From Cirrosporium novae-zelandiae (taxonomy: Eukaryota), in the NCBI GenBank assembly GCA_026023565.1, contig JAPETS010000050.1, positions 62,001 through 126,000 on the forward strand: a DNA stretch of 64,000 nucleotides, given 5' to 3'. The translations under genes were made by a program, and so were the position numbers. Shown here piece after piece: positions 31,602 through 60,814 of this stretch (position 1 is the stretch's first letter; each line of letters begins with the position of its first letter). The notes beneath the pieces are model-generated. The model searched no databases and was not told the DNA's origin. It worked only from the letters and a program-made list of their open reading frames with translations.

Positions 31602-34600
31602 TCATCCCATAAACTTCTCTACTGCCTGCTTAAGCAATTTCCCAAGATCCTTAACCAACGGCGGCGCAACCATGGAGAAATGATCCGCCTCGATCTTGTG
31701 ACACTCAATCCCCTTCTCCCCAACCAACTTATCCCACCCATTCGGTCCAAATGTATACCTCTTTGCATAAAACCAAGACCTCAACCCCGTCTCCGGATCC
31801 TCCATATTATTCCCCCCCTTTCCGTTTCCAGATCCTACGACGCCCATTGCTGCGGCAGTAGCTGGAGCTGGAGCTGAGGATATTTCGTCGGACTCGGCGC
31901 CCGCGACCTCATCTAGGCCCTGGGTTGCCCAGATGATGAATGTGTTCTCGGGCCGGTGGGCGGGGTCCATGGGGATAGGGTCGAACACGACGAGTGCTTT
32001 GAGCGTGCTAAGGAGATGTTGTTTCTGTTTCTGGGAGATGAGATCGAGGAGGTTTCCGGAGCGTTTGATACCCGTGATGAGACCCGTCTGCTCGACGAGC
32101 TCCATGGTGGGTTCGAGGGCGTCTGGAATGGAGCGGGGCACGCGCATGTCGATGATGATGAGGCCGCGGATTTCTTCGCCCTGGGCCAGGAGCATGCGTG
32201 CGGTTTCGTATGCGTAGACTCCGCCGGCAGACCAGCCTCCGACGAGGTAGGGTCCCTGTGGCTGGGTCTTGCGGATTGCGGCGAGGTACATGCTGGCCAT
32301 GTCGGAGATGGTGCAGGTGTAGTCTTCTGGGCAGTGGAGGAAGGGAGATTCGAGCGCGTAGATGCGGCGGCCGCCTGGGAGGGGAGGTAGGTGGATATAG
32401 GCTGTGGCAGAGCCGGCACCGTCGGTGATGAGGAAGAGGGGGATTTCGGGGGATGAGGAACGGCCTTGCATTAGGACAACCTTGCTGGAGTAGGTGGGTT
32501 TCCCTTCGGCGTTTTCTTCCTGGGCGGGTTCGGGGCTGGCGGCACGCTTTGCGACTTCGGATTTAGGCCTTGGCTTTGGGGCTTGTTTGGGGGTGCTATG
32601 AGTGGCCATTTTTGGGGTTGGTGGTGCTGGTGATGCAACTGGTGTGGGGGTAATCGCTTTCTTTTTGGGTTTTGGGGCGGCTTCTGGTGCTTTCCCAAGC
32701 TCTGCTCTTACATCTGCAACGGTCGGATAGTTGTTGAAGAAGGATGCTGGAAGCTCGACGTCTGTTTCTTTCTTGAAGGCTGCAATGATTGCAATGCTCA
32801 TGAGCGAGTCCACACCCATGTCTGAGAAAAGAGTTGAAGGTTCCATGTCTTCGGCGTCGAATCCAGTTTCTGTGGCGACGGCGCTGAGGAGGATATCTGC
32901 GGCATCTGGCTCGTCTGAGGTAGGCTCGGGGGTCTCTTGACGAGGAGTAGACACGGTCTTTGGTGGCTTAGATGCTCGGATGGGCTTTGGAGTGCTTCCA
33001 AGCTCCTCTCGCATCTCGGCGACGGTTGGGCAGTTGTTGAAGAATGACGCCGGAAGCTCTGTACCCGTCTGCTTCTTGAAAGCCGATATGATGGCGATAC
33101 TCATCAGGGAATCAACGCCCATGTCAGAAAATAGTGTCGAGGGTTCCATATCATCGAGCTGGAATCCAGTCTCGGCAGCGACAGCATCAAGGAAGAGGTC
33201 CGCCATGTCTGGTTCGTCTCGACCGTCGACCGAAGAGGGAGGAGTCGAGGCGCTTGAATCTGACTCAGACGAGCTGTGCGAAGCATCCTCTTCCAATTGC
33301 GTAACGTTCCTGATGTTTTTGGATGATAGTTGCGCTTTGCCCTTAGACGAAGTTTTCGTTGCTGGAGCTTGGAGCCTTTTCTTTGGAAGATTTGTACCGA
33401 CTGGGCCTCCGGGTTTCTGGGAGGCTTTGATCGCATTTTTACCGCTGATGATACCAAAGACTGCTTTTGTCATTTTCTGAAACTTGATGCCAGTGCACAA
33501 TGCGACGAGTTCACTTCCATCGAAGAGATATACATCACCTAGCGACAATCCCTTTTCATTTGAGGGCTCTATGCTAGTATAGCACGTATAATCTTTGTCT
33601 TCAGAAAGCTCGCCGATAATGCGTAGGCTTTCAAGGCCAGTAGATATGTAGGCAATATCATCAGGCTTTGAAAAGTTCCCGTTGAGAACAAATCCTGAGA
33701 GATGGACGATCGCATCTGTCCAGTACGGACTGTAGGTAAATGAACCAAGGCCCAAGCTAGGTCCCAGCTTCACATTTGCTGCAGCGTCGCTGAATCCATT
33801 GTCCAAAAATACCTCTTCAATCGCTTGATACTTCTGATCATAGTCGACTAAATTGGCAAACAGCTTGTATACGATAGGCTTCATCAATCTGTGGCCGGCT
33901 CCTGACTGACTGGACTTGACGAGAGCATCAATCCGCTTCTTGACCAAGTGGAGGCTTCTAGTCCACTCAGATTTCCGCTCATTTTCGTCCTCGAAAAGAA
34001 CTTGGCAATGGCCATGTTCGTGGGAAGAAGCTCCTTCGGTGGAACTGTAGAAGACATCTACAGATGAATCGGCCCCCGACTTTGTAGCAGTTACCTTGAT
34101 TATCTGCTCCGGGTTAATACTAGGGACAACCAAAGCATGGGTAATCTCCAAATTAGATAATTCCATATGTGGAACTGCCATCCCCGGGTTAGCTTTCGTG
34201 TAGATATATCTTGCTGCCGTGAATGCCATATCATAGAAGACACTGGCCGGACATAGCGCAATACCATCAACAATATGGCCTTGAACTGCATTGTACAATT
34301 TTGGCTCGCAGGTATTGGATGCAAAAGTGACAGATATCTTGTTGCCCGCGAATGACTCCTTCTCGACACGTTGCAAACATGTCGTGGAGAACGTAGATAC
34401 AGGCTCTGCTTTCACAGATGCTGGCACAGCTTGGATATTCTTCTCATCTGGCTTATAAGAATTCCAGTAGTTCTTTAGGTCAAAGGCATAAGTCGGCAAT
34501 TCCAAAAGTCGCAATCCTTTTATGAACTCTTTGTGATACTCGGGCCAGTCGAAGGGTGCCTTGGAGACATATAGACTAGCAATGGAAGTAGATATCGTCT

Positions 34601-37600
34601 TCCAATCATCCTCGCCAGACTTGAGAGTGGAAAGCAGCTTAGTAGACGGTACCTCAAGGCTGGTTCGAATGAGCCCTAAGCACACTGGCTGTGGACCAAT
34701 CTCTAAAAACAAGGAATTATCATCAACAACTCCCTTGGACTTGCCAGTCTGTAAAGCGCCGACAAAGTTGACTGCATTTCGAGCTTGCTCTGCTAGATAG
34801 GTTGGATTGAAAGTCCCAGCCTCAGTCACAATTTCGGCAATTAGCGTAGAGGCGACAGGTACGGCCGGTTTGCCGAAATAGATTCCTTTGGCACTAGCCT
34901 CAAAATCCTCCAGGATCGGGTCAATTTGGGGCGAATGAAATCCATAGGGAACCTGCAGCAGAGTGGTTTTGATTGCGTCATCTTGTAAGCGACCCTGCAG
35001 ACCCTTGATTTCCTCGACCATGCCACTAACAACAGTCATGTTGGGCGCATTCAAGCAGGATATTTGGCAAGAATGGTAATTTGTATCGGCCAAGATACTT
35101 TGAAGCGATTCCGGCGACGATGCTATTGCAAGCATTGCGTGTGTACCAGGAGTGCATTTCTCTTCCATAAGTTGAGCACGCTTACCAACAAGATACAATG
35201 TATCACTGACGGACAAAACGCCAGAGACACAAAGAGCAGCGTATTCACCAAGACTGTGCCCAATGACCATATCTGGTGTTATTCCCCATGACCTCCAGAG
35301 GTTCGCTAGAGCAATTTCGAGAGCAACGATAGCAAGCTGGACTTGAACTGGCGTCTTAGACGCAATGTCTTCTTCGTCATTGGAGATTAGGTCAATAAAA
35401 GAAGGCAGACCCTGGATATCACAAAGTTCCTGATAGGAGAGGATAATCTCTCGGAACTTTGGAGATGAGTGGAAAAGGGTTCTCCCCATGCCCGAATATT
35501 GTGAGCCTTGTCCGGTGAAGGCAAACACAACCGAACTATAACCTCCACTTGGCTTTGCTCCATTGTCACTTGCAAGATCGGCGCTGAGTTTATCAATAAT
35601 CTCTTTTGTTGTCTGCGCAATATATGCACTCCTAGAGCCGTCATGGAGGCGCCGAGCACTAGTCGTATAGGCTATATCCGAAATTTTGAGATTCGGGTTG
35701 GAGGCTAAATGATCTAGCAAGCGCCTTTTGTTCTCGTTGAGCGAATAAGCTGTTCGGGCTGAGCAAGTCACAATATGGTATGGCCTTGGATCTTGGGTCT
35801 TTTCTTCTTGAACTGGAGGATCTTCGATTAACAAACTTGTGTTGCCCCCCTAATAGTAATTAGCATGAATCGTTTAATTTCGCCACTGGGAAAAGGGCCT
35901 CACAGCAGCGTCAAAGTTGTTTAGGAGAATTTTTCTCTTTCCGTCGCCTTTCGAATATGCTTTAAAATTCATCGCCTTGTCTGCAATCCGGACATTCATC
36001 TTTTCCAGCGGGGGGAATTTGTGGTTGGTAGGGAACGGCATCCCTGGTTGGGGTGGAATTGTATTTTCTTTCAACATGAGAACTGTCTTGATCAATGAAG
36101 TAATTCCAGCAGCCTTATTGAAAAAATAGTTAGTCAAACATTTAGTACGAAACAGGTCTGCGATATACTGACCGCTTCACCGTGTCCAACATTTGCCTTC
36201 ACGGCACCAACAACCAATGGATTGTCCTTCGTGCGTCTTTTACCAAAGACATTAGTCACAGAGGTCATTTCAACTGTATCTCCAGCTTGTGTTCCGGTGC
36301 CATGCATTTCGACAAAGCCAACATCTTCGGGGTCCACAGATGTCTGCTGAAGTACTTTTCTAAACAGCATTTCCTGCGTCTCTGCGTGAGGCTGGGTGAT
36401 GGAAACGGCCTCTGCAGAATAGGTCCTTGCTGCCCCCCTGACGACCGCTTGTATATTGTCGTTGTCGGAAATTGCATCTTCAAGGCGTTTGAGTACAACC
36501 ATACCGACACCTTCACCTCTGCAGTAGCCGTCTGCGCCGTCATCGAACGTCTTGCAGGCCCCAGTAGTTGATAAGAAACTACCTCTGCTGAGACCTGCAA
36601 ACATTGGCGGTGCTGTGAGAAGAGATCCACCTCCGGCTACGGCGGTGTCACACTCTCGAGCTATTAGGGCGGAGCATGCTAGGTGGACAGCAGTGGAGCT
36701 TGATGCACAGGCAGCATCCAGACTGTAATACGGACCGCCCCATTTGAAGTGATAGTTCAGACGACCAGGAGCAAATGCTCGAACGGTTCCGGGTACGTAG
36801 TAGATATCGACACCTTGCGATTCATTGATATAACGCCAGTCATCGCCACTCTGTCCAAAGTATGTAGCAATTCTTGAACTATTTGTTGAAAGAGAGCCAT
36901 TCTGGGTGTACCCAGCCATCTCCATTGCTTCATAGCTGATCATCAATACCAGTCGCTGAAGTGGGTCCATTTGAGCGGCTTCTCGAGGTGAGACGTTGAA
37001 GAGGCGAGTATCAAAAACGCCAGGGTTATCCAGGAAACAGCCATATTGTGTTGTTGCGGTATTTTTGACTGCACCTGTCGGGTCAAAGTAGGTGTCGAGA
37101 TCAAAACGACTTTTTGGAATCTACCAATTCAAATTAGCAAGATCCTAATTGTTTGAACGTCAAGTTGTATCACCTGTTGATGGACATCTGCGCCGCTCCT
37201 CAGCGTTTCCCAGAACTCTGGAAGATTATTGCCTCCGGGGAATCTACCGGACATGCCGACAATCGCGATAAGATCCGATCCTCCGCGCACATTTTCCGCA
37301 GTTGGCAAAGGCTTGACAGCATCGGTTAGGGTAACATTAAGACCAGAGTTTTGCAAGTTGCGTTGGACCAACGTAGTATGATTGGTCGGTCCAACCGCGG
37401 TCAACTTGACGTCCCCCTTTCCTATAATCTTTGAGATGACAGCTTGGACAGTTGCTTCCATGCGCAATGTGTTTTGGGTGACATCCTGAATCATCAGATA
37501 AAGAAGCTCCCGTAGATTTGATGCTTCAAAGGGCTTGCAAGTGCTTGAGGAAATAATTGAAGCTTTAGCAGGAACGGGGGTATCAAGCAGGGGGGATGTT

Positions 37601-38467
37601 CCAACAATTTTCTCCAAGTCTGGCAGCGGCAGATGGGCCGCATGGACGGCAGCAGCAGCGGCAATCTTGAGTTTTGGAGCTAATGTTAGATCAGAGGAGT
37701 ATGACCAGAGTCTTGCTAGGACAGATGGGGGTCCAAAGATGGTGGTCCAAGTGCGTGAAATAACGCCAAGATACGCGTGCCTTGGGATAGGTAGACCCTA
37801 AACATGTTAGATTGGAGAATGCGAGATTTCGACGAAGAAAATACCTGGCTGTAGTTGAAGTCATCTAGAATCGCTTGCAACTCTTCAGCCGTTGCACCCA
37901 CGACAGTACATGCCCAGGACTCTGGAGATTCATCTATCCGCTTTGAGCGCCGGGTGAATTCAATCGCGAGGCGAAAGGAGATAGAGACAATCTCGAGACC
38001 AAACTTGAACAATTCACTGGTATCTCTTGCAAATGCTGCCACTGCACCTGGAAGAAGACCAGTACAAAAGCCTAATATATGGACGTTGGAGTCTGGTGCT
38101 GTGAGTATGGTCGGATCATTCTCCACATAGCTATAGAAATATTAGAACGAAAAAGATAATGGAGACCGGATACAAACAGAATGAGCTCTCCCAATCGCTC
38201 TATGCACATTAGGACTGTAGCTACAACTTCATCTGGGTCTTCTTGCTTGGCGTAGTCCTCTGCCAAGGCAAGAATACTGTGAAAGGAGGAGAACCATTTG
38301 CGTTCACTCGGACTGACTTTCATAGTCTCTGCCTGGACAACATCTGTAGCCTCCTGGAGGAATCTTCGGAGAGAAGGGGATGTTCTTGATAACTGGACCA
38401 GGTTTCGAATTGAAGGCAGCTTTTCGACCGTTTGGTCTCCAAACAACAGTACATGTTGAGACGCCAT
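31602..38467 (-). CDS. Non-reducing iterative type I polyketide synthase, SAT-KS-AT-PT-ACP-ACP-TE (orsellinate/resorcylate group), 6 exons
   Basis: SAT: LLFGDQT, GFCTG, VHAAHL. KS: DAACASS, HGTGT, GHGEA. AT: GHSLGEY, GFHS. PT: GHIVDGIALCP, TDAIVH. Two ACPs: DMGVDSLM. TE: DGAGSATAYIHL, GWSAG, DHFSMV. All five introns splice in frame by my reading. Confidence 0.96.
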
Positions 38468-40115
38468 GGTTTTTGGTTCTGCAAAGAATAATTTGGAAAA
38501 TATGGACATATGAAGGGACTTTATAATCAGGGGCACAAAGATGGAACCAAATATGATGAACGATAGTAGTCTTAAATGATGGTTGGCAAAGTGCAGAGAG
38601 CCAGCTAGATAGCTTCTTATCAGACTTGGTAACCTAGTGTGGAATATTGCACTGGAGTACTGCAGTATTGGAGCTGAAGATGCAAATTCTTTCATTGGTG
38701 GCTCTAAGGATGCCATCTTCCTTCAGAACTATCACTGAGCTTACCTGATAGCATGTAGCTTTCACGAGCCATAATATTCAATCATGAAGATTGGATTACA
38801 GGAGTGATCCGCCCATAGGCGACGATATTCGATTAGGATGAGTCTCGTACATCCGTACACCTGAAGATACACATATTCCCAATTAGCAATAGTTTGGCCA
38901 TCCCGTAGTCATCTTCATACAACAATAGATTTCATGTTGACTCAACATCGCCAGCGATGTAATCCTCCTGAGTGATCCTAATTAGAGCCAAACTGGATCA
39001 AATCGCGAATTGCTTTTTTTGGAATGATAACTAATAACTAAAAAGGAACATGTTTGAAGTAGTGGCGATGAGGATGGGGACCTCACAGCGAAGGGTTGCA
39101 TGCTGAGGCATCGAATCCTAGCCATGATCTTGTCTACTCGAGTAGGGTGGTGGTCTGCTTAGGGCATATAGGAGTCTCGTTTGGGAAGGCTTGATTAATC
39201 TCGGCTCCTCGGTGAAAGGGATCGGATATGGCGCTCACGGAGAAATTTAATTGAGCGTCTTACTCGAGTACGGCTGACATGATAAGATCTACTCGAGGAC
39301 TCTGTATGGAATAAGAAGGGTCAACGGGCCGGGAAGCTAGTTTAGGGTGATATCAGGTGCCTAGCTCATTGTTGCCGTATCCCGTCCCTGGTCTGGAGAA
39401 TCCTTAGCCCCCACATTTCAACGGGACCCATCTATCAAACTTACAGTAATTAGTCTTCCCGCTAAATCTTCCGGAAATAACCGGATCCTTTGCTCAGTAA
39501 CACCACAGATGAAAAGTAATGCAGCGTGCATGCAACATGCAGCTCAGGCGAGTTAACTCAACAGATGGGAATGACTAGAGCACAGTCTTACCAACAAGGA
39601 ACAATATGCTTGTAACGAGCCCCCCATGTTTCTATACTCAGAAGAAGGGCATGTTGATGAACAACCTAACCCGCATGCGTCTGAGAATGCTGTACACAGG
39701 AGGATAATGCCTGAGTGAAGGTCAGCCCCGATGTGGAAAGAATAAGACTTGGAAAATTTCAACAGTCTATACGCTTGTTATTTTCGTAATTTAATCTGCC
39801 TTGTCTAGTCTCTTGGTATTTTATAACCATGAAATACAAGTATTGGATTTCACTGTATATACTCAAACTCATATAAATTCTGTATTGAACACTAGAAATA
39901 AATGAATTTCATTTCGTGAATGTATTTTATATTACAATATGTATTGACGGGTATTTAGTTTACGGTAATCGGCCAAGTCGGACCGGTATCACTTCTTCAC
40001 CTCCATGGTCTTATCAAAACCGTTAATTTTTATACCTTGAGCTTTACACTATGTTTTATCTCACATAAGACGTTTCCTAATTAAGCACTATGACTGTCGA
40101 CATGACCCTCCATGT

Positions 40116-40297
40116 TGTTAGATAAGGGCCTTCTGTTCACCTAGGACGAGCCAAGGTTCAGGGTTCCTGATAGACCAGACCGTAGTTGTCCAGCATGCCA
40201 TGTAAATGTCTCCATCGGGTAATAGATAGACCCTCAAGTTTCTTGGATCAGAGAATGGTAAGAGTAAGCCATAAACCTTAATCTTCTCTCATCATCA
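40116..40297. mobile_element. Possible solo LTR (182 bp) in the NR-PKS/OMT divergent promoter
   Basis: TGTTAG...CATCA flanked by CATGT on both sides (40111-40115 and 40298-40302). Terminal inverted match is weak. Confidence 0.4.
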
Positions 40298-40350
40298 CAT
40301 GTTATTAGTCTAAGGCACTGGACGGCTTCTATGAAAAGTGACAAGTAATT

Positions 40351-40574
40351 CACGTGGCAGGGTGCACGTGCCGACTTCTGTTTTAGGATTAGTACCATGT
40401 ATTACTGTACTGTGACTAAGCATACATCACGTGCAATCGGCCTCTCGATGATCCGTGATCTAAGGAGGCCGTAGAGACCAACTTGGCAAAATTAGACAAA
40501 AGCTCGGTTTCGTTTAGACCGGGATTCGCGGTATCGTTTAAACTAGTGTAGACTAGGATTCTCGGTTTCGTTTA
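40351..40574. promoter_or_regulatory. Clustered putative transcription-factor sites upstream of the O-methyltransferase
   Basis: CACGTG at 40351, 40365 and 40428. CGGTWTCGTTTA at 40505, 40529 and 40563. Confidence 0.5.
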
Positions 40575-40956: not shown

Positions 40957-42433
40957 ATGGAACCTATCAAAGTTGACCCTACCACTGAGTTGACAACATT
41001 AGTTAATGAGCTCAACAATGCATCCAAAGCCTTCAACCCTGCCCCTGGTCCTTCAGGGACACAGAGTCGTATTGAGATCATTGCCAAGGCGAAGCAGATC
41101 ATCAATGCAATGAGAGATCCACTAACTATATCATTCGCCCATGGTGCTAGTGTGAGTATACAGCGGGACTAGACAGCCCTATTAAATAGCTAATTTTGGC
41201 TAGATGCTCGAAACCATGGCCATACGAACACTAGTGAGCTTGCACGTCTTCGAAAAGATCCCTGGCGACGGTTCAATCACTTTGGAAGCCTTGTCACAAG
41301 CCACCGGAGTACAGGATTCTCTTCTCGGTACATTCGGCTTGCAGTGATAATTCTGTATTGATAAACTGACGATTAGAGCAGAACGCCTTTTGCGCATCTT
41401 AGTCGTTACCGGTTTTGTAAACCAGACACCCGAATTTGAATACACTCACACCAAGTTCTCGCGCGCATATGCTACCTCTCCAGAGATTGGAAAATTCTTT
41501 GCATTAAAGTATGTGGTCTCTCCCTCGAGCTCTCTGGGCGCCTTCCATCTACTATACATCAACGTGGCTGACTTTTAACAGATACGATGATGTCTTCCTT
41601 GTCCTCGATCGATTCCACGAATACCTCGCAGACCGCAAATCTCTCAAGGAACCCGAGGACCCAGCCTTTAACCCATTTACATGGGCACACAAACAAGACG
41701 GAACAAACGTGTGGGAAATCATGGCCCAAAACCCAGCGAGACTTAAGGAGTACCAAATAGGGCTCGCGACTGCGGATAAACGCATGCCGACTGTCGGTTT
41801 CTATGACTTCGGTCGGCTAAACACTTCTGATAGCCGTCCTGTGTTCGTGGATGTTGGAGGTGGTAGTGGAGTGAGCATTCTAGCGATCATGAAAGCCCAT
41901 CCAGAACTAGCAAAGACCCCCGAAAAGTTCATATTGCAAGATTTGAAAGGCCCAATTGAGCTTGCGAGAGAGGCAGGGAAATTGCCAGAGGGAGTGAAGA
42001 CAATGGAACATGATTTTTATTCGGAGCAGCCAGTCAAAGGTTTGATTTTCTTTTTTCTCATTTTTTCTTCTTCTTCCACAAGTCATTAATGACTAACTAG
42101 ACCTTAAATATAGGAGCAAAGGCATATTATATCCGTCGCATCATGCACGACTATTCAGACGCAAACTGCGTCTTGATCTTGAAACGGCTAGCGGAGGCCA
42201 TGAGTGCCGACTCGGTAGTTTTAATTTCCGATATGGTCATACCACCACAGTGCTCGGAGACAAATCTAATGGCGGTAATGTCGGATCTGGCAATAATGTC
42301 TATGGGTGGAAAGGAAAGGACAGAAGCAGGGTTTTCAAAGATACTTGGATTGGCAGGTTTGGAATTGGTGAAGGTTTGGAAAGCGAATGTTGAGGGAGAC
42401 GCGTTGGCTGAAGCAAGGTTGGCGACTAAGTAG
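40957..42433 (+). CDS. SAM-dependent O-methyltransferase (fungal secondary-metabolite Methyltransf_2 type), 5 exons
   Basis: N-terminal winged-helix region (ITLEALSQATGVQDSLLERLLRIL). SAM motif VDVGGGSG, ILQDL, HDFYSEQPVKGAKAYYIRRIMHDYSD, GGKERT. Confidence 0.93.
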
Positions 42434-42694: not shown

Positions 42695-44181
42695 ATGAGC
42701 GACAACGAGAAAATCAGGGTGTCTGGCGATAGTCCCAGAACCGCCGAGTCCAGTACCCTCCCCACAGTCAATCCAGCTATCGAGAAACCAGACCCCCCAA
42801 GGGCGGGCTTGCACCCAGCAGTATACGTCATGTACGTTCTCTTTCTCTAAGCTGCTTGGAGTGATTGGAATTGCAGAAGCTAATTTATCACTGCAGAGTA
42901 TGGATTACCTTGAGCTCAAGCGTCATTCTATTCAACAAGTATCTCTTGGATACCATGGGATTTAGTATGTCGAACATCCCCCCTCCTATATCCTATATCT
43001 TACATCTTGCTAATTCTGTCTAGGATTTCGTATGAGCCCCCCTCCAATTCGTTCCAATACTACATAACCTAACCACAATGCCCAGCCATCGTCCTTACAA
43101 CATGGCATCTCGCCTTCGCTTCATTCTTGACCCAGGTTTTGGCTCGAACAACTACACTTTTGGATGGCCGTAAAACAGTTAAAATGACACCCCGTGTCTA
43201 TATCAGGGCTATCGTTCCCATTGGTTTCTTATTCAGTTTGAGTCTGATGTGCGGTAATAAGGCTTATCTGTACCTGAGCGTAGCTTTTATTCAAATGCTC
43301 AAGGTAAATAGATGGCTTCTTACAATGAACGTGGGAGCTATGTTAACAATTCTAGGCCACTGTGATAGTCGCCGTCCTGTTCGCTACATGGGGGTTTGGT
43401 GTGGCAGAACCTAATCTCAAGACCCTCGGGAACGTCTCCATCATTGTCGTTGGCATCATCATTGCCTCATATGGTGAGGTTCAGTTTAACCTAATAGGAT
43501 TCATGTACCAAGCCGGTGGCATTGTCTTCGAAGCCATCCGTCTGGTGATGGTGCAACGCCTTCTCAGCTCTGCCGAATACAAGATGGATCCGCTTGTCTC
43601 ACTCTATTATTTTGCGCCTGTCTGCGCACTAATGAACGGCCTCACTGCATTAGCCACCGAAGTGCCAACAATGACAATGGACGATATCTACCATGTCGGC
43701 TTCCCTATTCTTCTCGCAAATGCAATGATTGCTTTCATGCTGAATGTCTCAGCCGTGTTCCTGGTCAGTCCCAAAACCTAAAGATATTTCTATCCAAAAT
43801 ACTGATTTTCTATAGATTGGCAAAACATCCTCCCTCGTCCTCACCCTCTGTGGCGTGCTCAAAGATATCCTTCTTGTTGGAGCTTCCATGCTCATCTGGA
43901 GTACTCCTGTCACCCCCCTCCAATTCTTCGGGTACAGCGTTGCCCTATCAGGATTAGTATACTACAAGCTAGGCCCTGACCAGATCAAACAATATGTTGG
44001 CCAAGCAGGCCTTGTCTGGTCAGAATTTGGAGTACAACGACCTGCCCTACGAAAATTTCTAGTCTTTTTTGCCATCCTGTCAACACTTTTCCTGGTCATC
44101 GGAAGTCTGACTCCAACCTTTGCCCCCGAGACAGCCGCCAACCTTGGGGGTATTTTGAACGAAGGTACCACCGGAGCTTAA
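42695..44181 (+). CDS. Triose-phosphate-transporter/nucleotide-sugar transporter family (DUF250-type) membrane protein, 6 exons including a 6-nt micro-exon
   Basis: Contains WITLSSSVILFNK, FPIVLTTWHL, CGNKAYLYLSVAFIQMLKA, MDPLVSLYYFAPVC and IGKTSSLVLTLCGVLKDI. Confidence 0.9.
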
Positions 44182-45069: not shown

Positions 45070-47019
45070 TCAATCAATCTCTGGGCGAGTGGTTCGGCCT
45101 AGTTCGAGGTGTCCGTTGGGATGTTGTAAGGGTGAGGGGATATTTGTGGAATCTCCTATGTGCGTTTGTCGCCCGCCGGTGCCAGTACCAGCGCGGTCAA
45201 CATTCTCTTCACCTCCTCCGTCGCCACTGCCATTCTCAGCTCCATTCTTCTTCCTCTGCTTAACGCTCTTCCACTCCATACCGACAACGCCGATAACGGA
45301 ACAGCACGCGAACGCAACACCGACTATAAACGCGTCCATCAGAGCGTCATTATAAATTTTCAATACCAAAGAGGTATCCTGCTTGCTCAGCAGGCCGCGG
45401 AGACCGGTGGCTCCCGCATTTATAATAGCGGCAGGATTAATATCTTTGATTTTGGAATTTTCGAGACCGGAAATGAGACCGCTGTTGAAGACATTGCTGG
45501 CGATGGAAACAGCGATGGAGCCGCCGAGGGACTGTGCAAAGAACATTAGGGAGGTGCCGGTTGGGACATCTTCGTTCGGGAGGATGGTTTGGGCGGCCAG
45601 AATAGGTTGTTGGAGCCCGAGGCCGATTCCGATACCGAAGAGGGCTTGGTAGCCAATCCATTGCGAGGAGGGTGTATTGATGGTGAAGGTAGTCATGAGA
45701 CCTGCTCCGATGGACATGAAGATCGAGCAGGCGATCATGAAAGGGGTATAATAGCCAATCAGGGTGATTATAATCCCTGAGAGGATGCTAGTAATGAAGA
45801 GCCCGAGCAGCATGGGGATGTTACGGATGCCGGACTCCACAGCACTAACGCCTTTGATTGCTTGGAACCAGATTGGAAGGTAGTAGATCAGTGCTATCAT
45901 GGAACCACCTACGAAGACCGAGAAGATGGTGCCAAACAGGATACTGCGTTGTTTGATTATGTGGATTGGGATTGTAGCTGTGGCTCGGAGGAAGTATTGC
46001 ACGGCTATGAATGCGATAAGGAGGATCGCGAAGACGACTAAAAGAGCGATTATTCGTGGATTGTTCCATGCGTAGGTTGAGCCGCCCCATTGCAGGGCTA
46101 GGAGAAGGCAGATTATGCTTGGGAGAAAGAAGAGATTTCCGAGGGGGTCTAGCTTCAGCAATATTTGTCTTACGGTCATCGTAGAGCCGAGATGCGCTGT
46201 CGGCGGTAGATGGAGGAGGAAAAAAATAATGAAAAGAGTCACACAGCCGATGGGTAGATTAATGTAGAAGCACCAGCGCCAGGAGACGTTTTGTGTGAAA
46301 GCTCCACCCAGCAAGGGGCCCGCAACAGATGCAATCCCGAAAACGGAACCAATAAGGCCCGTGTACAACGGACGTTTGTGGAGTGGGACGGTATGAACGA
46401 TGAGAACGGTTGACCCAGAGAAGATACCCGCGGATCCAAGACCTGCTATAGCTCGACCGACGATAAATCCGTCCGAGTTTGGAGCAGCCCCACAGACGGC
46501 GGAGCCGACTTCGAAGATGGTGATGGAAACGAGAAATACCCACTTTGGACTGAAGAAGGTGTAGATCCTGCCAAAGACGAGCTGGAAGGCTGCATTTGTT
46601 AAAAGATATGCTGAACCATACCATCCTACATCGCCGAGGGAGTGGAAATCGTCAGTGATACGGGGAATCGCAGTTGAAATGATTGTTTTGTCCTGCAAAA
46701 GATTTAGCAAATACCTTCAGAACCAGATGTGCGAGATCAGTGTAGGCTCATTTACCAGAGCAACGAGAAGACCGGCGAGATAGATTCCGGTCATGATCAC
46801 CATCACCACTCCGGTCTTGGGGTACTTTGTCGCATCATGTTCGCCAGCCATAGAATCATTTGATGGGAATGATGATGGCTGCTCCTCATTTCCTTGTCTT
46901 TCCATTTTCTCGTCTTCCTTCTTCTCGTTCTGCTTCTCCTTTCCCTCCAACTGCTCGATAGGGTTCGGAGATAGTTCCATAGTTGAATCTGTGTTTGAAG
47001 GAGTGGTAGACATATTCAT
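45070..47019 (-). CDS. MFS drug/toxin efflux transporter (DHA2, 14-TM type), 2 exons
   Basis: LLVAL|DKTIISTAIPRITDDFHSLGDVGWYGSAYLLT, GRAIAGLG, GPLLGGAFT..SWRWCFYINLPIG, YYLPIWFQAIKG. Intron at ~46693-46755. Confidence 0.95.
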
Positions 47020-50569: not shown

Positions 50570-50620
50570 CGCTTTAGAAGGCTGTTGAGGCTCGCTTTAG
50601 AAGGTCGTCGAGCCTCGCTT
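50570..50620. repeat. 23-bp tandem duplication in the P450/HR-PKS divergent promoter
   Basis: CGCTTTAGAAGGCTGTTGAGGCT / CGCTTTAGAAGGTCGTCGAGCCT / CGCTT. Confidence 0.8.
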
Positions 50621-52616
50621 CTTCCCGTCCCGTCGCCCTAGTCACCTTAGTGGCCTTAGTTTTTTGTCCCTTACGTCTCCGGCATACAAGTCACTCATTT
50701 CATCAAATATTAACAACGTCTTGTCTTACATGCGTCGGTTCAATATCCCCCGTTTTGCTTATAGGTTCCACAAACTTACTGATGCATAAAGTTTGCTCCT
50801 TTAACCCTCAACATGCTTATTCCAATATCTATTCGCTGTTCACTATTCTCTGTAAACGTCTTGAGGACCTTTCCACCAACTTTAACGGTGGGGCTGATAT
50901 GCATTAGACCAATCCAAATTCACTGTCCTGCTCGCATGCGACTATAGCTTAGTGGATATGAAAACTCTCCGCCTCCCTGAGAATTTACACTTTTCAGCAG
51001 CCAGACTATTGATAAACCGCATTGATTAGTTTAAACTCTCAAACATATTCATTCCGAAAATAACAAATGTCGATCTGCCGCGATCAGGCCCCGAGCTGAT
51101 TTCAACGGCTTGATATCTATACCCAATATTCTCAGCTATCTAAACATATCAGGCATAACTTATTAGGCATGCTAAAAAATCCGCTACACCCCCACTGAGG
51201 AGACGCAGTTAGCTAGGCTTCCTTAGGGGAAAGACAGGCGTGAGGCGGAGATAAGCTGTGCTGTTGAAATGTCAAGATCTCACTAGTAGAACGGGCTGAA
51301 GCCAGAAAATGTTGTGCTGCTTGTGGTTGGAGTGATAACAAAGATGGGCTGAATTTCTTTTAGATCCGTTCTTTTACCCCCCCTTCATGAAAAAAAATTA
51401 AATTAGCTAAGAGTAATTCACAGGCGGTTAGGTCAAGTAAGCATTCTTAGCCCTAGTTCATGAAATTTCTCCCATGCTTAACAACAGGGCGGGACTAAGC
51501 CTAGATTCCTTTCCATGACCTGTTGCTGCGTACTTCTGATTGGAGATGCCTAATATTGCATTGTTGAAACAAAAAAAGCAATACAGATATATCCGCCTAG
51601 CTGGATTTGGCTGTCCCTGCGAGTTTCTAAATCAATTAACATGCCATTGATGTCAGATAACATCACAGCACTACAATGATCTTCAAAAAAAATCAACCTA
51701 ACAGTATTCGAGATCAGCTAATCTCACTGAGCGAGATGCTATCCATATCTCATCTACACGGGTAGCAGGAGCTGAAGCCTGAAGGATGATCAATCGATCC
51801 CAAACTGCTCTCTGGAATTGCATAATGTTGATTGATAATGATTCAATCCTCGAACTCCCTGCAATCAGCTAATCTATGCGAGCAAGTGAGCAAGGTAGTA
51901 TCCCGTCCATCCAATTCATGCATCTACTTGTCCATCTATCCTTAGTCCTATCCACCAGAGAAGGGCTGGACTGCAGGGTCCACCATCCTAAACTCTGGAA
52001 TTTCATCCTCTTTTTGTTTTGGTTATCAATCCTTTGTCTGGAACGTATGCATGTGTTCATCCATGTTCATCCATACCTAGCTCCCTATCCCACGGATCCA
52101 GCACGGTCGGGCGGAAAAGAAGAGTGAATTCCTTTTGGGAAAGTTAATATGATGTACCATCAATTGAGCTGCGTTCATCTTACAAGAGGATATATTTGGA
52201 AATATGTCGATATCTGATAGCCCTAACCGAATTCATACCGTGTGATATCCTTCTGTCTCCTATCTATCCACGCTTACTTACTTGCTTACACTTCTTCGTT
52301 TCTACTTGCTCATAAGACTTACATGCAAGAAGACATCTCTATTTCTGCCTTTTGCATTTCGTTGAGCTTGGTCATTGTGTGACACTCAGCATTTCTAACA
52401 TATCCGAGGAGCACTTCGTTTCACAACCTCAGGGTCTAGGTAACTTCAGTGAATGTTGAATAAGAATAGAAGTCCCTGCCTACCTACCGTTCCCTACGAT
52501 CATCTTGAGTCAAATAAATCACTGCAGCGTCCCTCTTATTACCTTAGTTATATTATCCCTTCAGGTGTTTGCCTTGCGTGTCAAACCGGGCATCTTTCTT
52601 CATAAACTACCTCATC

Positions 52617-55600
52617 ATGCCGTATCTCGGAAGCTCTGGGAGTTCCGGAATATCTACCCCCGCAACAGAAACCATACGAAATGGTCAAGATGTCGCCATC
52701 ATAGGACTTGCATGCCGGCTGCCTGGTGACGCGACGGACGCAGAAGCTTTCTGGGAACTTCTATGCTCGGCACGATGTAAGTGACCCTCATGACCGACTC
52801 TTCACTCCAAGAGTCCAAGTGAAGCTATCTAGCTACACAAACTCTAACACAACCCACAGCTGCATATTCAGATACAGATCGATTTAATGCCGATGGGTTT
52901 CAGGATAACGGAACTGGAAAGCTTAACTCTAGCGCAACGCGAGGGGGGCACTTTTTGCGCCAGAACGTTGCTGCATTTGATGCGAGTTTCTTTAGTATCT
53001 CGCGTAATGAGGCGTTGGCGATAGATCCTCAGCAGAGAATTATGCTGGAGGTTGCGTACGAGGCTTTTGAGAATGCGGGTGTGCCAATTGAAGCGGTTGC
53101 GGGGAGTCAGACCGGGTGTTTTGTGGGCAATTTCACTACGGATTATAGAGAAATGCTCTTCAAGGATCCAGAGGCTGCTCCACTGTATACTGTAACTGGG
53201 ACTGGCTCATCATTGGTCTCAAACAGGGTGTCCTGGTTCTATGATCTCAAGGGCCCTAGTTTCACGGTCAATACCGCCTGCTCGTCAAGTCTCGTTGCTC
53301 TACACAGTGCATGTCAGAGTCTTCAGTCAGGAGAATCAAGCATGGCAATTGTTGGTGGATCAAATCTGATCCTGAGTCCTGAGATGTTCATGTTTTTCAC
53401 GAACCAGAATTTTCTCTCCAAAGATGGACTCTGCAAGAGCTTTGATGCGTCTGGCAATGGATATAGTCGTGGTGACGGTGTCGCTGCGATAATCCTAAAG
53501 CCAGTCGATGATGCCATCCGCGATGGGGATCCCATTCGAGCCATTATTCGCGGTACTGGAGTGAATCAGAATGGAAAGAATAAGGGAATTACCCTACCTA
53601 GCGCTCAGGCTCAAGCGGATTTGATCCGTTCGACATATCAATCGGCGGGATTAGATTTCAAGGATACTAATTTTGTCGAGGCCCATGTAAGCTCTGAATT
53701 ATTTCATATGCTTCATGTACTAAAGCTTACGATTTCTAGGGTACTGGGACCAAGGCAGGCGATCCTTTGGAGCTGGAGGCCATGGCAAAGACACTAACAA
53801 CAGTCCGGGGGCCCCAAAATAAACTTATAGTTGGGTCAGCAAAAGCGAATGTACGTTTAAAAATCTATTCGAGGTTTGATAGAGGAACAATACTGACGGA
53901 CATACTTTTAGATCGGCCATACAGAAGCCACGGCAGGTCTGGCCGGGGTCATCAAAGGAATTTATATGCTCGAAAATGGCATCATCCCACCAAATATTCA
54001 TTTCCACAAAGGCAATCCCGCAATTCCGTTCGATGAATGGAAGATGATGATCCCGACGAAGCTCATGCCTTGGCCGACCAGCGGCATACGACGTTTAAGT
54101 GTAAGTAATTCAAACCTTGTAGGGCCGAGTTCAAAGAGTGCTTTGTACTAACGTTTCTACCCCCTCGCAGGTCAATTCATTTGGTTACAGTGGAACAAAT
54201 GCTCACGCCATACTCGACGATGCTTTTTCCTACTTGAAAGCTAGGAGACTGAAAGGGGTTCATTTCACTCGCCCGTCTACGTCCACAAGTTCACGCGGAC
54301 TTCCAAGATCTACGGGAAGTCTATGGATGCCTGCCACTAACAGGCTCGATTCGATCAAAACGAACGGACTCAAAAGCCGGATGATGACTAGATTGTTTGT
54401 ACTCAGCGCTCAAGACCAGGACGGGATAAATAGACAAAAAGAGTCGTTTGCCAAGTATTTCCGAGGGCTATCTCTTCAAAGTGAATCCGCAAAGGATAAA
54501 GATGAATACCTCCGCGATTTGGCTTTTACGCTCAGCGAGAAACGATCACGCCTGTCGTGGAAATCATACGTCACCGCTTCATCTCTCGAAGAGCTTTCAT
54601 CCAAATTGGAGGATAAGCACTCCGATTCACTTACTTGCCGGTCAATTCACGAACCCAGGGTTGGATTTATCTTCACTGGACAAGGTGCTCAATGGGCCAA
54701 AATGGGAATTGAGCTTTGTCAGTACTCTGTCTTCCGGAAGAGCGTTGAACAGGCGGATGAATACCTTCGGTCTAATCTTGGATGTACATGGTCTACCGTG
54801 CAAGAATTGCATTGTGAGGAATCCGACTCGAATATTAACCTTCCTACGTACAGTCAACCAATATGTACGATCCTCCAAGTTGCTCTCGTCGATTTGCTCG
54901 AGAGTTGGAACATCACGCCTTGTGCAATGGCCGGCCACTCCAGCGGTGAGATCGCAGGTGCATATTGTTTAGGTGCCCTGTCAAAGGAGGATGCTTGGAA
55001 GATAGCTTACTATCGTGGACTGCTATCTTCGCAGATGCACGCCCACTCACCAGGGCTTGAAGGAGCCATGATGGCTGTTGGAGCGTCTGAGTTCGAGGCA
55101 GAGAACTGGATATCGCGAGTTACTCGTGGTAAAGTGGTGGTAGCATGCGTCAATTCACCTTCCAGTGTCACGATATCTGGCGATGCACCCGGCATTGAAG
55201 AGCTCCATGCCATGTTGAAGAAAGAAGACATTTTCGCAAGGAAATTAAAGGTAGAGACCGCATATCACTCGCATCACATGAACATGATAGCAGCGCCCTA
55301 CCTGCAAGCAATCCATGATATTCAACCTATGCCAGCTCGGGGGTCTCGGAAGATGTACTCTGCTGTGTCTGGTGGTTTGGCAGATGCCACCGAGTTAGGA
55401 CCTGTCAACTGGGTGCGGAATCTAGTTTCCCCAGTACAGTTTTCGGATGCTGTCTATGAACTTCTACGTCCAATCAAGCTTGGGAAGCGAACCACCGAGA
55501 CTGCTGTTGATATTTTACTTGAGGTTGGGCCACACTCTGCGCTTCAAGGTCCTGTGAAACAGATTATGAAAGAGTATGGCATCAGCGGCGTCGACTACCG

Positions 55601-58600
55601 ATCAGTTCTGTTGCGAGGACGAAATGGGATCAACACAGCGCTAGATGCAGCAGGAGCGTTATTCGCCAATGGCGTTGGCGTGGATATCAGTAAAGTCAAT
55701 AGTGGCACGGGTTATGCTCTCAATGACGTGCCAAGTCCACTAGTTAATCTTCCTTCATATCGCTGGAACCATTCTCGGACTTATTGGGGAGAGTCTCGCA
55801 TTGCCAAACAATATCGTACACGGGAGCACCCACAGTTGAGCCTACTTGGAGCTCCATGCCCTACCATGGGAGAAAATGAGCGGCTGTGGAGAGGATTTTT
55901 ACGGATGTCTGAAGAGCAATGGGTTAAAGACCACAAGATTCAGAGCTCTGTCCTGTACCCTGCTGCAGGATATATAGCCATGGCTATCGAAGCCGCTTGC
56001 CAGATCGCTGAAAAAGGCCGTGTGGTCAGAGACTTTAGACTTCGAGACATTCAGATCAACGCAGCTGCAATGGTGACAGAAGATTGTGATCTGGAATGCG
56101 TTTTCCAGTTTCGGCCTCACCTGATTGCTACGCGAGACAAGTCTTCTACTTGGCTGGAATTTACTGTTTCGACGTGTGCCGATGGTCAAGATTTGCGACA
56201 AAACTGTTCTGGTCTCTTACTCGTTGAATACGAATCTCAAGATGGTTCAGCAATGAGCATTGAGAGGCAACTAGGAGATCAAGCGGCCAAGGATCAATAT
56301 TATCAAGCCGAAGAGGTTTGCGAGACTTCCGAAGACCCTCAAGAATTTTACAAGGAACTGGCGTCTCTAGGTTTGGTGTATGGTCCGGCTTTCCAGAAGA
56401 TATCGCGGATTCGTAAAGGGACAGGGAAAAGCTGCTGTGTCGTTGAGACTTTTAACCCAGAGGTCCCTATCTCAGCAGACAGACCACATATCATACACCC
56501 TGCAACCCTAGATGCCATGTTTCACGCTGTCTTTGCAGCCTTCAAGGGAGATGGTGGTTTACTGAAAGAAGCAATGGTACCAAAATCCATTGATGAAGTG
56601 ATCGTTTCAGCACAGGCACCTTATGAAAACGGAACCCGATTTAAAGGCTTTTCCGATGCAGAAAAGCATGGGTTCCGGGAGCTCATGGCCGATCTAGTCA
56701 TGTTAGACGAGAAGACGATGAAACCATCGGTGACAGTGAAAGGCTTCTGCTGTGCTGCCGTCTCAGGCATGGGCGACCCTACCGATGAAGCGTCGGAGGA
56801 AACGGCTAAAAGTTTCTGCAGCAAGCTGGTCTGGACGCCGGCTCTAGAGTTGTTGTCATCGGATCAAGAGCGCCAGTTGATCAACGCAGCGGCCCCTGGA
56901 GACTTGTCTCCTGAGATGGCGAGGAAGATTGAGGAGTCAGAACTGATGGCTTTTATATTTATTCGCCGGGCTATCGAGAACGTTTCCCTAGATATGGTCC
57001 CAACGGAGCCGCTAAAAGCCTTGTATGAATGGATGCAGGAGCAATTGGCTTTGGCGAGCATACATGCTCATCCCCTGCAAGCTGTTATGGAAGATTGGCA
57101 GAGTACAGACAAAGAAACAGAAGAAGCTCTCGAAAAGGAAGTTGAAGCTGACGGCACCGAAGGAGAGGCTTTGTGCCGAGTCGGTAGAAATCTTGAAAAA
57201 GTCCTGTGTGGGGAAGTAGATCCGATGCAGCTCCTTGCCGACAAAGATTTGTTAGATGGAGGTTTTGTTGACATGAAGGGGATGAAGGAGTGCTTGACAA
57301 AGATCAGCGAGGTAATTTCCTATCTTGTGACGAGATATTTCATGCAACTAACAGATCTTAGCTCGTCAACTTGATGGCGAATATCCGCCCAGGTCTTTCC
57401 ATCTTAGAGATTGGTACCGGAAATGGGGGAGTAGCACCAGCAGTACTCTCGTCTTTGTCCAAATTTTTAGATGGAGTTACCAAACCTATCGAGTATACTT
57501 TTTCGTGTTCGAATGCAGCCACCCTGCAAAAGGCTGAGGGACATCTTCAAGAATTTAAAGACCGTGTTAAATTCAAAGTCCTCGATTTTGAGAAAAACCC
57601 CGCCGATCAGGGATTCGAAAATGGGACTTACGACATCATCCTAACTTGCAATGCGATTGTAGCCGTCCAGAATCTGGAACAGGCCTTGCATAGAACACAA
57701 AAACTTCTGAAACCAGGAGGCAAATTCTGTGCCCTGAAGGTAACAGACCCAGGATTAAGACTTGGTATGACACTAGGATGTCTGCCTAACTGGTGGGCGT
57801 AAGTATTCTCAAAGCTTTTCTGCATTAAGTTTACTAATTTTATTTAATAGCAAAGAGCAAGCGGGACGGCTTCATGGCCTTGTAGACATTCAAGCGCGTG
57901 AGGCCCTTCTCAGAAACAAGAAATTCGATTTCGGCTTCATCGAGAGAGATTTTGAAGATTGGAGATATCAACAGCTCAGTTTGATAATCTCAACTGTAGA
58001 AGAAAGCCAGAAGCCAACTCCACATAGTGATGAAGTAGTTATTCTCGAGGCTCCTGGTATGTCCCCTAACGTCAAGGCCTTGAGCTCCCAGCTAGTATCC
58101 GAGCTCAAGCATCGTTCTGTCACCATAAACAAGGTGGCATGGGGCAATGACCTATCTTTACTGAAGGACAAGCGATGCATTTCTCTTCTAGAGCTTGAGA
58201 AACCCGTCCTTTCAAGTTTGAGTGCCACGGACTTTGCAACAATCCAAAGCTTGATCCTAGAATGCTCAAGTCTATTATGGATTTCCTCGTCTGGTGATCC
58301 ATCCGGCAGTCTAGCATCCGGAATGGCTCGAAGCATCAGGAACGAAATTCCTGATATGCAATTCCGCACCCTACAAATTCAGCCAAAGTCTCTAGATTCG
58401 CCTAACCTCCTAGCTCCAGCCATCGCACGGCTTGCTACAATCTCTACGGCAGATGATGAATTCATCGAGGAAGATGGAATTCTAAAAGTGTCTCGCGTCA
58501 TTGAGGATACTCCAATGAACAAACATATGTCCTCGTCGTTGTCCGAGGGCACAGAAATTATCGAGTCCATGTCTTTGAAGCAGTCAAATAGTCCCCAAAA

Positions 58601-60814
58601 GCTCGCGATACAGAATCAGGGAATGCTTGACACGCTCTGCTATGAAGCAGATGAAGTTCCCTCACAACCGCTCGGCGACGATGATGTCGAAATAAAGGTC
58701 AAAGCTACTGGGTTGAAGTAAGTATATCTCGATGTATTCTCTTATTTAATGAGCTAACATCCTCTAGCTTCCGTGACATAATGGTAGCAATGGGTCACAT
58801 ACCCGACAGTCTACTAGGCTTTGAGGCCAGTGGAGTTATCGCTCGTATTGGTAGTAATGTTACTAAATTCAAGGTCGGTGATCACGTTTGCACGTTGGGC
58901 CATGGTGCCCATAGATCCGTCTTCCGAAACAATGAGGCATTTGTTCAACTTGTCCCAGAGGGCTTGTCTTTCGAAGAGGCTTCCACTTTACCTTTAGTTC
59001 ACTGCACAGCCTACAATGCGCTCGTTCGTATCGCACGTGCAGAACCAGGACAAACAGTTTTGATCCATGCCGCTGCTGGTGGCGTAGGGCAAGTTGCTAT
59101 CCAGATAGCAAAACACATTGGGATGGAAATATTTGCAACGGTAGGCTCTCCTGACAAGCGAAAGTTGATCCAGGATGTCTATGGCATACCTGACGATCAC
59201 ATCTTTGCATCTCGAGATGTGAGCTTTGCTAAAGGTGTCATGCGAATGACTCATGGACGAGGTGTTGATGTTGTGCTCAATTCCTTGTCTGGAGAAGCTC
59301 TAAGACAGACCTGGAATTGTATTGCGCCTTTTGGGACATTTATTGAGATTGGCATGAAAGATATTCTGGGAAATACTGGCCTGGACATGCGTCCGTTCTT
59401 GCAAGACGCCACCTTTGCGTTCTTCAACTTGAGCCACGTACTGAGAGCAAACCCAAAGCTCATGGAACGCATCATTCAAGGTGCTTTCGATTTCTTGCGT
59501 CAGGGTATTACAAAGCCAGTCTCACCATTGACGGTCTATCCAATTTCCCAAGTCGAAAACGCATTTCGTCTCATGCAGACCGGCAAACATCGAGGAAAGA
59601 TTGCCTTGTCATGGGACGAGAATGAAGTTGTGCCAATTGTACGAACCGTCGGCGACTCCCTTAAGTTGGACAGCAATGCAACCTACGTCCTTGTCGGAGG
59701 ACTTGGTGGGCTGGGACGAAGTCTTGCCAACCTTTTCGTCGACCACGGCGCTCGCTATCTATGCTTTATCTCGCGATCTGGAGACACGTCAAAACAAGCT
59801 CAAAAGCTAGTTCAGGACCTTGAGAAAAGACAAGTCTTTGTTAGAGTCTACCGCTGCGACATTGCCGACGAGGAGAGCCTAGCTGAGACCATCATCCAAT
59901 GCTCCCAGGAGCTCCCACCCATACGCGGCATGGTCCAGTGCGCAATGGTCCTTCGCGACGTCTTATTTGAAAAGATGACGTATCAGCAGTGGACCGAATC
60001 TCTACGTCCCAAAGTTGATGGCAGTTGGAACCTACACTCTCTCCTCCCAGAAGACCTCGACTTTTTCATAATCCTCAGCTCCTTCGCCGGCATCTTCGGC
60101 AACCGCAGCCAAAGCAATTATGCTGCAGCTGGCGCATACGAAGACGCCCTAGCCCACTATCGCCATTCACAAGGTCTCAAAGCCGTAACCCTCGACCTCG
60201 GAGTTATGCGAGACGTCGGTGTCATCGCCGAACAGGGTGCAACAGACTACCTCAAGGAATGGGAAGAACCCTTTGGAATCCGCGAGCTCGAGCTTCACGA
60301 TCTGATCAAGAAAACAATCACCAGCCAAGCCGCCGACGACGGGGACATCCCACCCCAGATCCTCACGGGATTTGCCACAGGCGGTGCCGCTCACGCAGCT
60401 TCGATCCGTCGCCCCCTCTATTTCGACGACGCGAGGTTCTCAATCCTAGCCAAGACGGGCCTAGGCGCAGCTCAAAGCAGCGGGGCAGCATCCGGATCCA
60501 AATCCATCTCCCTTCAAGACCAGCTAGCCCATGCGGAATCCCTGGCAGATGCCACAGCCGTCGTTATAGAAGCACTGGTTAACAAGGTCGCTAAATCCCT
60601 ACAAACATCGCCGTCTGAAATCGACCCTGCACGTCCGCTCCACTCATACGGCGTGGACTCTCTCGTCGCAGTCGAGATCCGAACCTGGATTTTCAAGGAC
60701 CTCAAGTCCAACGTTTCTCTGTTTGATGTCCTGTCCGCGGTTCCAATTTCAGCGCTGGCGGAGAAAATTGCGGGGGTGAGTAAGTTGTTGGCGGAAGGGG
60801 TGGCTGGGAAGTGA
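52617..60814 (+). CDS. Highly reducing iterative type I polyketide synthase, KS-AT-DH-pseudo(cMT)-ER-KR-ACP, 8 exons
   Basis: KS: TACSSS, EAHGTGT, GHTEA. AT: GHSSGE, AYHS. DH: DHKIQSSVLYP, HPATLD. Degenerate MT: LEIGTGNGG. ER: LIHAAAGGVG. KR: GGLGGLG, LRD, NYAAA. ACP: YGVDSLVAVE. Seven introns splice in frame by my reading. Confidence 0.96.

Follow-up and report, generated by a model that had tools for sequence, protein, structure and literature searches.

The stretch of DNA analysed here, called the window below, comprises 64,000 nucleotides of Cirrosporium novae-zelandiae (assembly GCA_026023565.1, contig JAPETS010000050.1, positions 62,001 to 126,000 of the forward strand) and carries a six-gene cluster with all frames intact, in which one highly reducing and one non-reducing polyketide synthase (HR-PKS and NR-PKS) are accompanied by an O-methyltransferase (OMT), a cytochrome P450 and two transporters. 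The nearest described relatives are the uncharacterised PKS27/PKS47 pairs of lichens, for which an alkylresorcylic role has already been hypothesised in print. With slightly better than even confidence, the cluster is read as a collaborating HR/NR-PKS pathway to a coupled, lichen-type alkyl-phenolic dimer.

C. novae-zelandiae is a non-lichenised fungus of the class Xylobotryomycetes that lives as a saprobe on wood and bark, and both PKSs and the P450 of the window are identical to NCBI proteins that bear its name. HR/NR pairs with an OMT and a P450 are well known as a type of system. The cluster bears on the unsettled origin of the C3, C5 and C7 side chains in lichen depsides, depsidones and dibenzofurans. 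It is a clean test of the idea that an HR-PKS supplies the starter, because it is compact and intact and belongs to a saprotroph with the strain CBS 123236, few SAT-bearing PKSs and one detected fatty acid synthase (FAS) pair. The genome counts (KS, SAT-bearing PKSs, FAS and halogenase) are lower bounds: at least 19 KS matches over eight contigs and at least three SAT-bearing PKSs were found, and no second FAS pair was seen in the genome as a possible starter source.

Polyketide synthases and their lichen relatives

The NR-PKS has its catalytic residues in place in the SAT (Cys119), KS (Cys538, His673, His713), AT (Ser985), PT (His1311, Asp1498) and TE (Ser1993, Asp2020, His2176) domains and a Ser in each of two ACPs, and has no cMT. 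Its SAT is of the active type (GxCxG) and it is clustered with an HR-PKS that has no release domain, the combination by which a collaborating pair is recognised. Over its full length it is 72% identical to each of the two Xylographa proteins; with the eight further named relatives that were compared, identity is 47-56%. In a PT+TE tree of 119 of the 120 matches (one has no TE) it belongs to a 17-member clade with support of 1.0, which includes the Xylographa proteins, two from Xylariales and further proteins. Over the SAT segment 198-249, counted by eye against Data Set S2 of Kim 2021 (PMC8262933), 41 of 52 residues are identical to PKS27, 24 to PKS28, 21 to PKS16 and 15 to Hpm3; the Xylographa orthologues share 41 and 39 of 52 with PKS27. 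The PT motif of PKS27 falls in a separate 33-member clade, whose proteins include those of Bacidia, Alectoria and Pseudevernia; the clade from Lambiella and Sarea is marked by a PKS16-like PT motif. The window NR-PKS is therefore a relative of PKS27 but belongs neither to PKS27 in the strict sense nor to PKS16.

The motifs of KS, AT, DH, ER, KR and ACP are present in the HR-PKS. Its methyltransferase is, as read from its residues, dead: the window protein and both Xylographa orthologues have other residues in place of the catalytic His and the Glu that follows it, and the His is retained in four of six distant HR-PKSs with an intact S-adenosylmethionine (SAM) motif. Given this predicted loss and the canonical cofactor motifs of ER and KR, an unbranched, reduced chain is to be expected, in agreement with the unmethylated starter proposed in an earlier note on this DNA.

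The HR-PKS shares 68-69% full-length identity with the Xylographa proteins and 50-61% with further proteins from lichens; with StmA, the nearest relative bearing a characterised name (UniRef naming), the figure is 52.5%. In a FastTree analysis of the AT-DH region of all 120 matches (supports are local supports, not bootstraps), the Cirrosporium and Xylographa proteins are sister, at 0.996, to a lichen HR-PKS group from Bacidia gigantensis, Psora, Lecanora helva, Icmadophila and Uapishka_2. Icmadophila and L. helva presumably contain perlatolic acids. The same sister grouping is obtained with ER-KR (0.952) and with the concatenated regions (0.999), both on 29 chosen rows, whereas the KS-only tree places the Cirrosporium and Xylographa proteins with Wetmoreana, Usnea and Xylariales proteins instead (0.984). 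The conflict of the KS tree with the AT-DH and ER-KR trees indicates that the HR-PKS has a mixed history. In the Wetmoreana, Usnea and Xylariales HR-PKSs the MT region is wholly lost, and their P450s, which retain the Thr of the I-helix and not the acid, mark them as a sister subtype.

The adjacent PKS27/PKS47 pair is listed by Kim 2021 (PMC8262933) for Cladonia macilenta, C. metacorallifera and C. grayi, whose compounds, didymic acid (twice) and grayanic acid, are classed there as alkyl-substituted; PKS16 is listed seven times in the same table. According to the tables of that study, the pair occurs in three of four genomes of producers of alkyl compounds and in none of three non-producers (Cladonia), a correlation that is suggestive only because the species are related. 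The C. grayi pair CLAGR_011105/011106 is a rival source for the side chain of grayanic acid. Kim 2025 (PMC13062703) describes the clusters for C5-alkylresorcylic depsidones as unidentified in lichens, hypothesises a role for PKS27, PKS28 and PKS29 and names olivetolic-type HR/NR systems as their characterised relatives. Singh 2021 proposed PKS16 together with the HexA/B FAS for the side chains; in yeast, PKS16 gave lecanoric acid only, according to the available reports.

The Bacidia gigantensis HR-PKS KAG8531294 adjoins the NR-PKS KAG8531293. This species makes homosekikaic acid, with the PKS given as unassigned in the available literature, and the pair is a candidate for it; the available text of Gerasimova 2022 reports that no type I PKS was found for homosekikaic acid.

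The P450 clade and co-inheritance of the genes

The P450 search returned 54 matches, and a quick tree was computed for 53 rows, a 932-amino-acid fusion being left out. Six proteins, from Cirrosporium, Xylographa bjoerkii, Xylographa trunciseda, Wetmoreana brouardii, Xylariales AK1849 and Xylaria intraflava, form a clade with SH-aLRT 100 whose branching mirrors that of the NR-PKS clade. Gly occupies the acid position of the I-helix in all six and in none of the 48 other matches, 39 of which retain the E/D-T pair; the Cirrosporium and Xylographa proteins additionally have Ser for Thr. By eye, Thr is also missing from the usnic-acid C-C coupling P450 CYP6309A2; in the hydroxylase Atr2, E-S-T is retained. 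The altered I-helix probably favours an unusual P450 chemistry, likely a radical coupling, and the cluster P450 could be the ring-joining enzyme; its clade is a candidate for a ring-coupling reaction that lacks an assigned enzyme. PDB searches returned generic relatives only, and an AlphaFold model built from a six-row alignment was poor (mean pLDDT 58.8) and was not used.

Among the matches listed, an HR-PKS relative lies on the same contig for 5 of 13 named NR-PKS relatives, in four cases within three genes, so that the collaboration of HR- and NR-PKSs claimed in the earlier note is borne out as a kind. All five relatives in the P450 clade share a contig with an HR-PKS and/or NR-PKS match, three of them within three locus tags; for AK1849 (1.7 Mb) and Xylaria intraflava (482 kb) the linkage is read only from contigs of equal size and is weak. 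A single 46.5-kb contig of Xylographa trunciseda carries the NR-PKS MMC11_007031, the HR-PKS 007034 and the P450 007035, with only two genes between the PKSs and the P450 outside the pair. In Xylographa bjoerkii the P450 MMC18_008208 adjoins the HR-PKS 008209 and the NR-PKS MMC18_009118 is on another short contig, and in Wetmoreana the HR-PKS is 000641 and the P450 000644.

Close orthologues came from two Xylographa species only, each in a one-member cluster; eight genomes of the genus are public, of which the search set may hold fewer. With 68-70% for the P450, full-length identity of the three proteins to their Xylographa orthologues is 68-72%. Such identity between classes, the wood-dwelling habit of both fungi and the patchy occurrence in Xylographa would be compatible with horizontal transfer or with repeated loss. 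The GC content at third codon positions of the cluster exons (0.44-0.57) overlaps that of the flanking genes (0.38-0.56) and thus gives no compositional sign of transfer.

Proposed pathway and alternatives

In the proposed pathway the HR-PKS would build a short, unbranched and largely reduced acyl chain on its own ACP, because its KS, AT, DH, ER and KR are intact, its cMT is predicted to be dead and a release domain is absent. The SAT cysteine of the NR-PKS would accept this starter, and three malonyl extensions and a C2-C7 aldol closure would yield a 6-alkylresorcylate, as suggested by the membership of the NR-PKS in group I. Two units may then be linked by the TE into a depside, which is the weakest step. 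The OMT may methylate one phenol, and the P450 without the I-helix acid may couple both rings by phenol radical chemistry, where a C-O bond would give a depsidone and a C-C bond a depsone or a biphenyl/dibenzofuran. The product would be exported by the MFS pump, and the sugar-nucleotide carrier would probably be a passenger or play an accessory part.

A narrower version, tentative and on balance doubtful, has the cluster make a depsone-type compound, friesiic or confriesiic acid or a close relative. With the usual ether bridge blocked by O-methylation, the P450 without the acid would form a dearomatising C-C spiro bond; picrolichenic acid presumably comes from a 2-O-methylated alkyl depside. 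This version is suggested by the orthologues in only X. trunciseda and X. bjoerkii together with their chemistry: both species presumably make confriesiic and friesiic acid, the latter of which we take to be a depsido-depsone. If true, it would be the first depsone gene set, would come from a non-lichenised fungus of which a strain is deposited, and would show that an HR-PKS instead of the HexA/B FAS can be the source of lichen alkyl side chains. Friesiic acid is confirmed in the available literature for Xylopsora only, and a literature search turned up no metabolites of Cirrosporium.

Several observations weigh against a coupled dimer made by a collaborating pair. For 8 of the 13 named NR-PKS relatives no HR-PKS partner is among the 120 HR-PKS matches listed. 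Linkage of the OMT is loose, one of 20 representatives (of 150) being on a contig equal in size to that of an NR-PKS match; an expressed OMT is noted in the C. macilenta PKS27 cluster (Kim 2025, PMC13062703). The window NR-PKS has two ACPs and both Xylographa orthologues have one, and its TE differs at several positions from PKS16-like TEs. The proposed lichen depsidone P450 CYP682BG1, of similar overall type, retains E-S-T (by eye); loss of the acid is therefore unneeded for coupling and no proof of it. A metagenome scan gave two loci, of which one is too short to inform and the other, L001 (7.8 kb, frameshift-rich), has a P450 of the clade at 4591-5959, flanked by a TAP-like peptidase gene and one unrelated gene, and lacks a PKS; its frameshifts may be sequencing error or decay. 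Stereocaulon alpinum, a producer of lobaric acid, has no PKS27/47 row in the tables of Kim 2021 (PMC8262933), and the available text of Gerasimova 2022 gives no PKS clade that tracks homosekikaic acid. The two divergent promoters have nine 11-mers in common, compared with 7.7 in background pairs, which is no excess. Two 12-mers occur in both promoters in inverted orientation (window 39775/51055 and 40704/51164), with overall sharing near background.

The product might instead be a monomeric alkylresorcylic acid of the olivetolic or sphaerophorolcarboxylic type, methylated by the OMT and hydroxylated on ring or chain by the P450 with no coupling; this we regard as unlikely, even with the olivetolic-type relatives named by Kim 2025 (PMC13062703) for PKS27, PKS28 and PKS29 on its side. 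The single ACP of the Xylographa NR-PKSs also fits a monomer. Against it, the acid-less I-helix is atypical of a plain hydroxylase. The HR-PKSs of Metarhizium and Talaromyces islandicus, which we take to be ova genes, are 48-49% identical to that of the window but belong to another clade, and the window NR-PKS has its own TE, unlike olivetolic clusters, which use a stand-alone TE. A new benzenediol (resorcylic acid) macrolactone, in which the HR-PKS would provide a terminal hydroxyl, the TE would cyclise and the OMT and P450 would tailor the product as in hypothemycin, appears quite improbable. The domain sets are equal, the NR-PKSs belong to the same group I, the hypothemycin cluster also has an OMT, a P450 and an MFS pump, and the chemistry of the TE is unreadable from sequence here; the SAT segment, however, is far closer by eye to PKS27 than to Hpm3, the HR-PKS lies outside a 44-member clade of ZEA2-like and zearalenone-synthase-labelled matches, and most of the close relatives come from lichens noted for compounds of the depside type.

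That the PKSs are mere neighbours with a tailoring gene each (NR-PKS with OMT, HR-PKS with P450), or that the cluster is silent, has very little probability in our judgement. The two separate divergent pairs, the location of the X. bjoerkii NR-PKS and HR-PKS/P450 on different small contigs, the lack of a cluster regulator and the background level of promoter motif sharing would fit independent genes, but the HR-PKS lacks its own release partner, HR-PKS and NR-PKS relatives are adjacent in unrelated genomes and all six genes are lesion-free. Hardly any weight can be given to a galactofuranosylated product, such as a depside glycoside of the KS-501 type, for which the extra UDP-galactofuranose carrier would feed an unlinked transferase. 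Three related TPT-family genes are present in the genome. The housekeeping copy, on contig C118, is divergent from a UDP-galactopyranose mutase gene (E 1e-271 to solved structures), and the cluster carrier, a second GlfB-type gene, is an intact paralogue of it, 62-79% identical by exon and not linked to the mutase; the name GlfB, and glfA-glfB as the usual arrangement, are our assumption. A search with a carrier exon confirms the family only. A third, more distant copy on contig C74 is near a glycosyltransferase-like gene. Against glycosylation, no glycosyltransferase was found within the cluster or elsewhere in the window, nor among the long open reading frames (ORFs) read up to 28 kb past its end; other contigs hold all five GT28 matches, and only two genes separate the PKSs of X. 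trunciseda. Two of the GT28 matches, C32:678193 and C94:24446, have equal score and frame length and are perhaps an assembly duplicate. Nothing relevant on a GlfB-type carrier in polyketide clusters was found in the literature search.

Gene inventory and comparison with known systems

The six genes are summarised in Table 1. The ends that the earlier note gives for the cluster, 31602 and 60814, coincide exactly with the PKS stop codons, and the NCBI models of both PKSs and the P450 were placed on the window with no internal stop. The numbering of the two PKS accessions leaves room for four genes in between, and four were modelled there. The OMT has four GT-AG introns, the TPT-family transporter five GT-AG introns and the MFS gene one, all three with open frames; the start codon of the MFS gene is ambiguous (47019, 47013 or 46980).

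Table 1. Genes of the cluster, with positions in the window
Gene product	Position	Strand	Features
NR-PKS group I, SAT-KS-AT-PT-ACP-ACP-TE	31602..38467	-	2201 aa, 6 exons, KAI9728586.1, lichen PKS27 relative
O-methyltransferase (Methyltransf_2)	40957..42433	+	407 aa, 5 exons, SAM motif and catalytic His intact
TPT-family nucleotide-sugar transporter	42695..44181	+	400 aa, 6 exons including a 6-nt micro-exon
MFS drug:H+ antiporter-like pump	45070..47019	-	about 628 aa, 2 exons
Cytochrome P450	48248..50097	-	533 aa, 4 exons, M1834_007618, I-helix Gly-Ser (339-340) for acid-Thr pair
HR-PKS, KS-AT-DH-pseudoMT-ER-KR-ACP	52617..60814	+	2592 aa, 8 exons, KAI9728591.1, lichen PKS47 relative

The open frames and catalytic motifs confirm the intact dual-PKS cluster with OMT, P450 and MFS pump that the earlier note had described, and its layout of two divergent gene pairs (NR-PKS/OMT and P450/HR-PKS) was found as stated. 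Two transporters had also been claimed; the MFS protein is indeed pump-like, and the other is a carrier of the nucleotide-sugar transporter family, for which a role as efflux pump was rejected. Among 70 intergenic ORFs of at least 50 amino acids none was above the Pfam cut-off, one having a sub-threshold match, so that no small gene, regulator, decarboxylase or oxidase was overlooked, and no flavin halogenase was found across the genome; both results agree with the gene set as first described, without halogenase, decarboxylase or FAD oxidase.

Both flanks are of housekeeping type, with GMP synthase, Rab, GDE1, RIO2, RPN1 and a leucine-rich repeat gene on the left and acyltransferase-3, catechol-type OMT, HET, MFS, eIF1A-like and ALG3 genes on the right. 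The acyltransferase-3 membrane protein and the catechol-type OMT beyond the HR-PKS are at window 62869-64000, L003:869-2204 and L003:4470-5315; an extension of the cluster to these downstream genes was rejected, as there is no evidence of linkage. A 1030-amino-acid open frame at window 19067-22156, amid the housekeeping genes, has no Pfam match.

The kind of system is already known from the dep, stromemycin and resorcylic acid lactone clusters. Its lichen relatives have been catalogued, and a hypothesis on them is in print. The literature searched, with most subscription journals outside it, yielded no publication that treats this subtype, a depsone gene or the cluster itself. No testable characterised cluster matches the gene set, as the earlier note had held for the pathways it named; the comparators that it listed, nornidulin and hypothemycin among them, turned out not to be close. 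The nornidulin/unguinol dep cluster has the same logic of HR-PKS starter, NR-PKS depside and P450 ether bridge (Yang 2023, PMC10501868), whereas its DepH, which groups with Preu6, carries an MT domain, the ER of DepD is dead, DepG resembles Atr2, and neither its clustered decarboxylase nor its remote halogenase has a counterpart here. Identity with dep is ruled out by the window NR-PKS without MT, the intact ER of the HR-PKS and the absence of a decarboxylase. The resorcylic acid lactone clusters (hypothemycin, zearalenone) resemble the window in HR/NR domain sets and SAT hand-over but differ in the SAT (15/52 to Hpm3), the clade of the HR-PKS and the FAD oxidase, which is absent here; on SAT and clade, identity with a hypothemycin-type cluster was rejected. 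Orthology with Hpm3/Hpm8 was not found in a partial comparison, full-length references being outside the trees.

The stromemycin cluster of Aspergillus ustus, in which an HR/NR pair makes an alkyl-resorcylate depside and which has a glycosyltransferase, is similar in StmA and its degenerate MT; here, however, the HR-PKS is in a separate clade, and an OMT and a P450 are present and a glycosyltransferase is not. In relation to OrsA/ThiA/AquA-type depside synthases, the window TE has Ser1993 and His2176. The lichen PKS16 clusters with CYP682BG (the grayanic and olivetoric/physodic acid proposals) share group I membership and a P450 of similar type beside the PKS; two ACPs are found in the window NR-PKS too, but one in both Xylographa orthologues. 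Their starter is proposed, in the reports available, to come from the unlinked HexA/B FAS, not from an HR-PKS, and CYP682BG1 has E-S-T. Identity with them is ruled out by the SAT (21/52), the clade of the PT motif and the different I-helix.

The Xylographa genes, annotated as hypothetical proteins, are orthologues of the NR-PKS, HR-PKS and P450 with the same altered I-helix, and differ in the single ACP and in gene order. The Cladonia PKS27/PKS47 pairs likewise consist of an adjacent group I NR-PKS and HR-PKS, with a similar HR-PKS KS, a close SAT (41/52 by eye) and, in C. macilenta, an OMT in the cluster (PMC8262933, PMC13062703). The window differs from them in an NR-PKS that belongs to its own 17-member clade and not to the 33-member clade of the PKS27 motif, in the special P450 clade, in the extra sugar-nucleotide carrier and in a non-lichenised host of another class.

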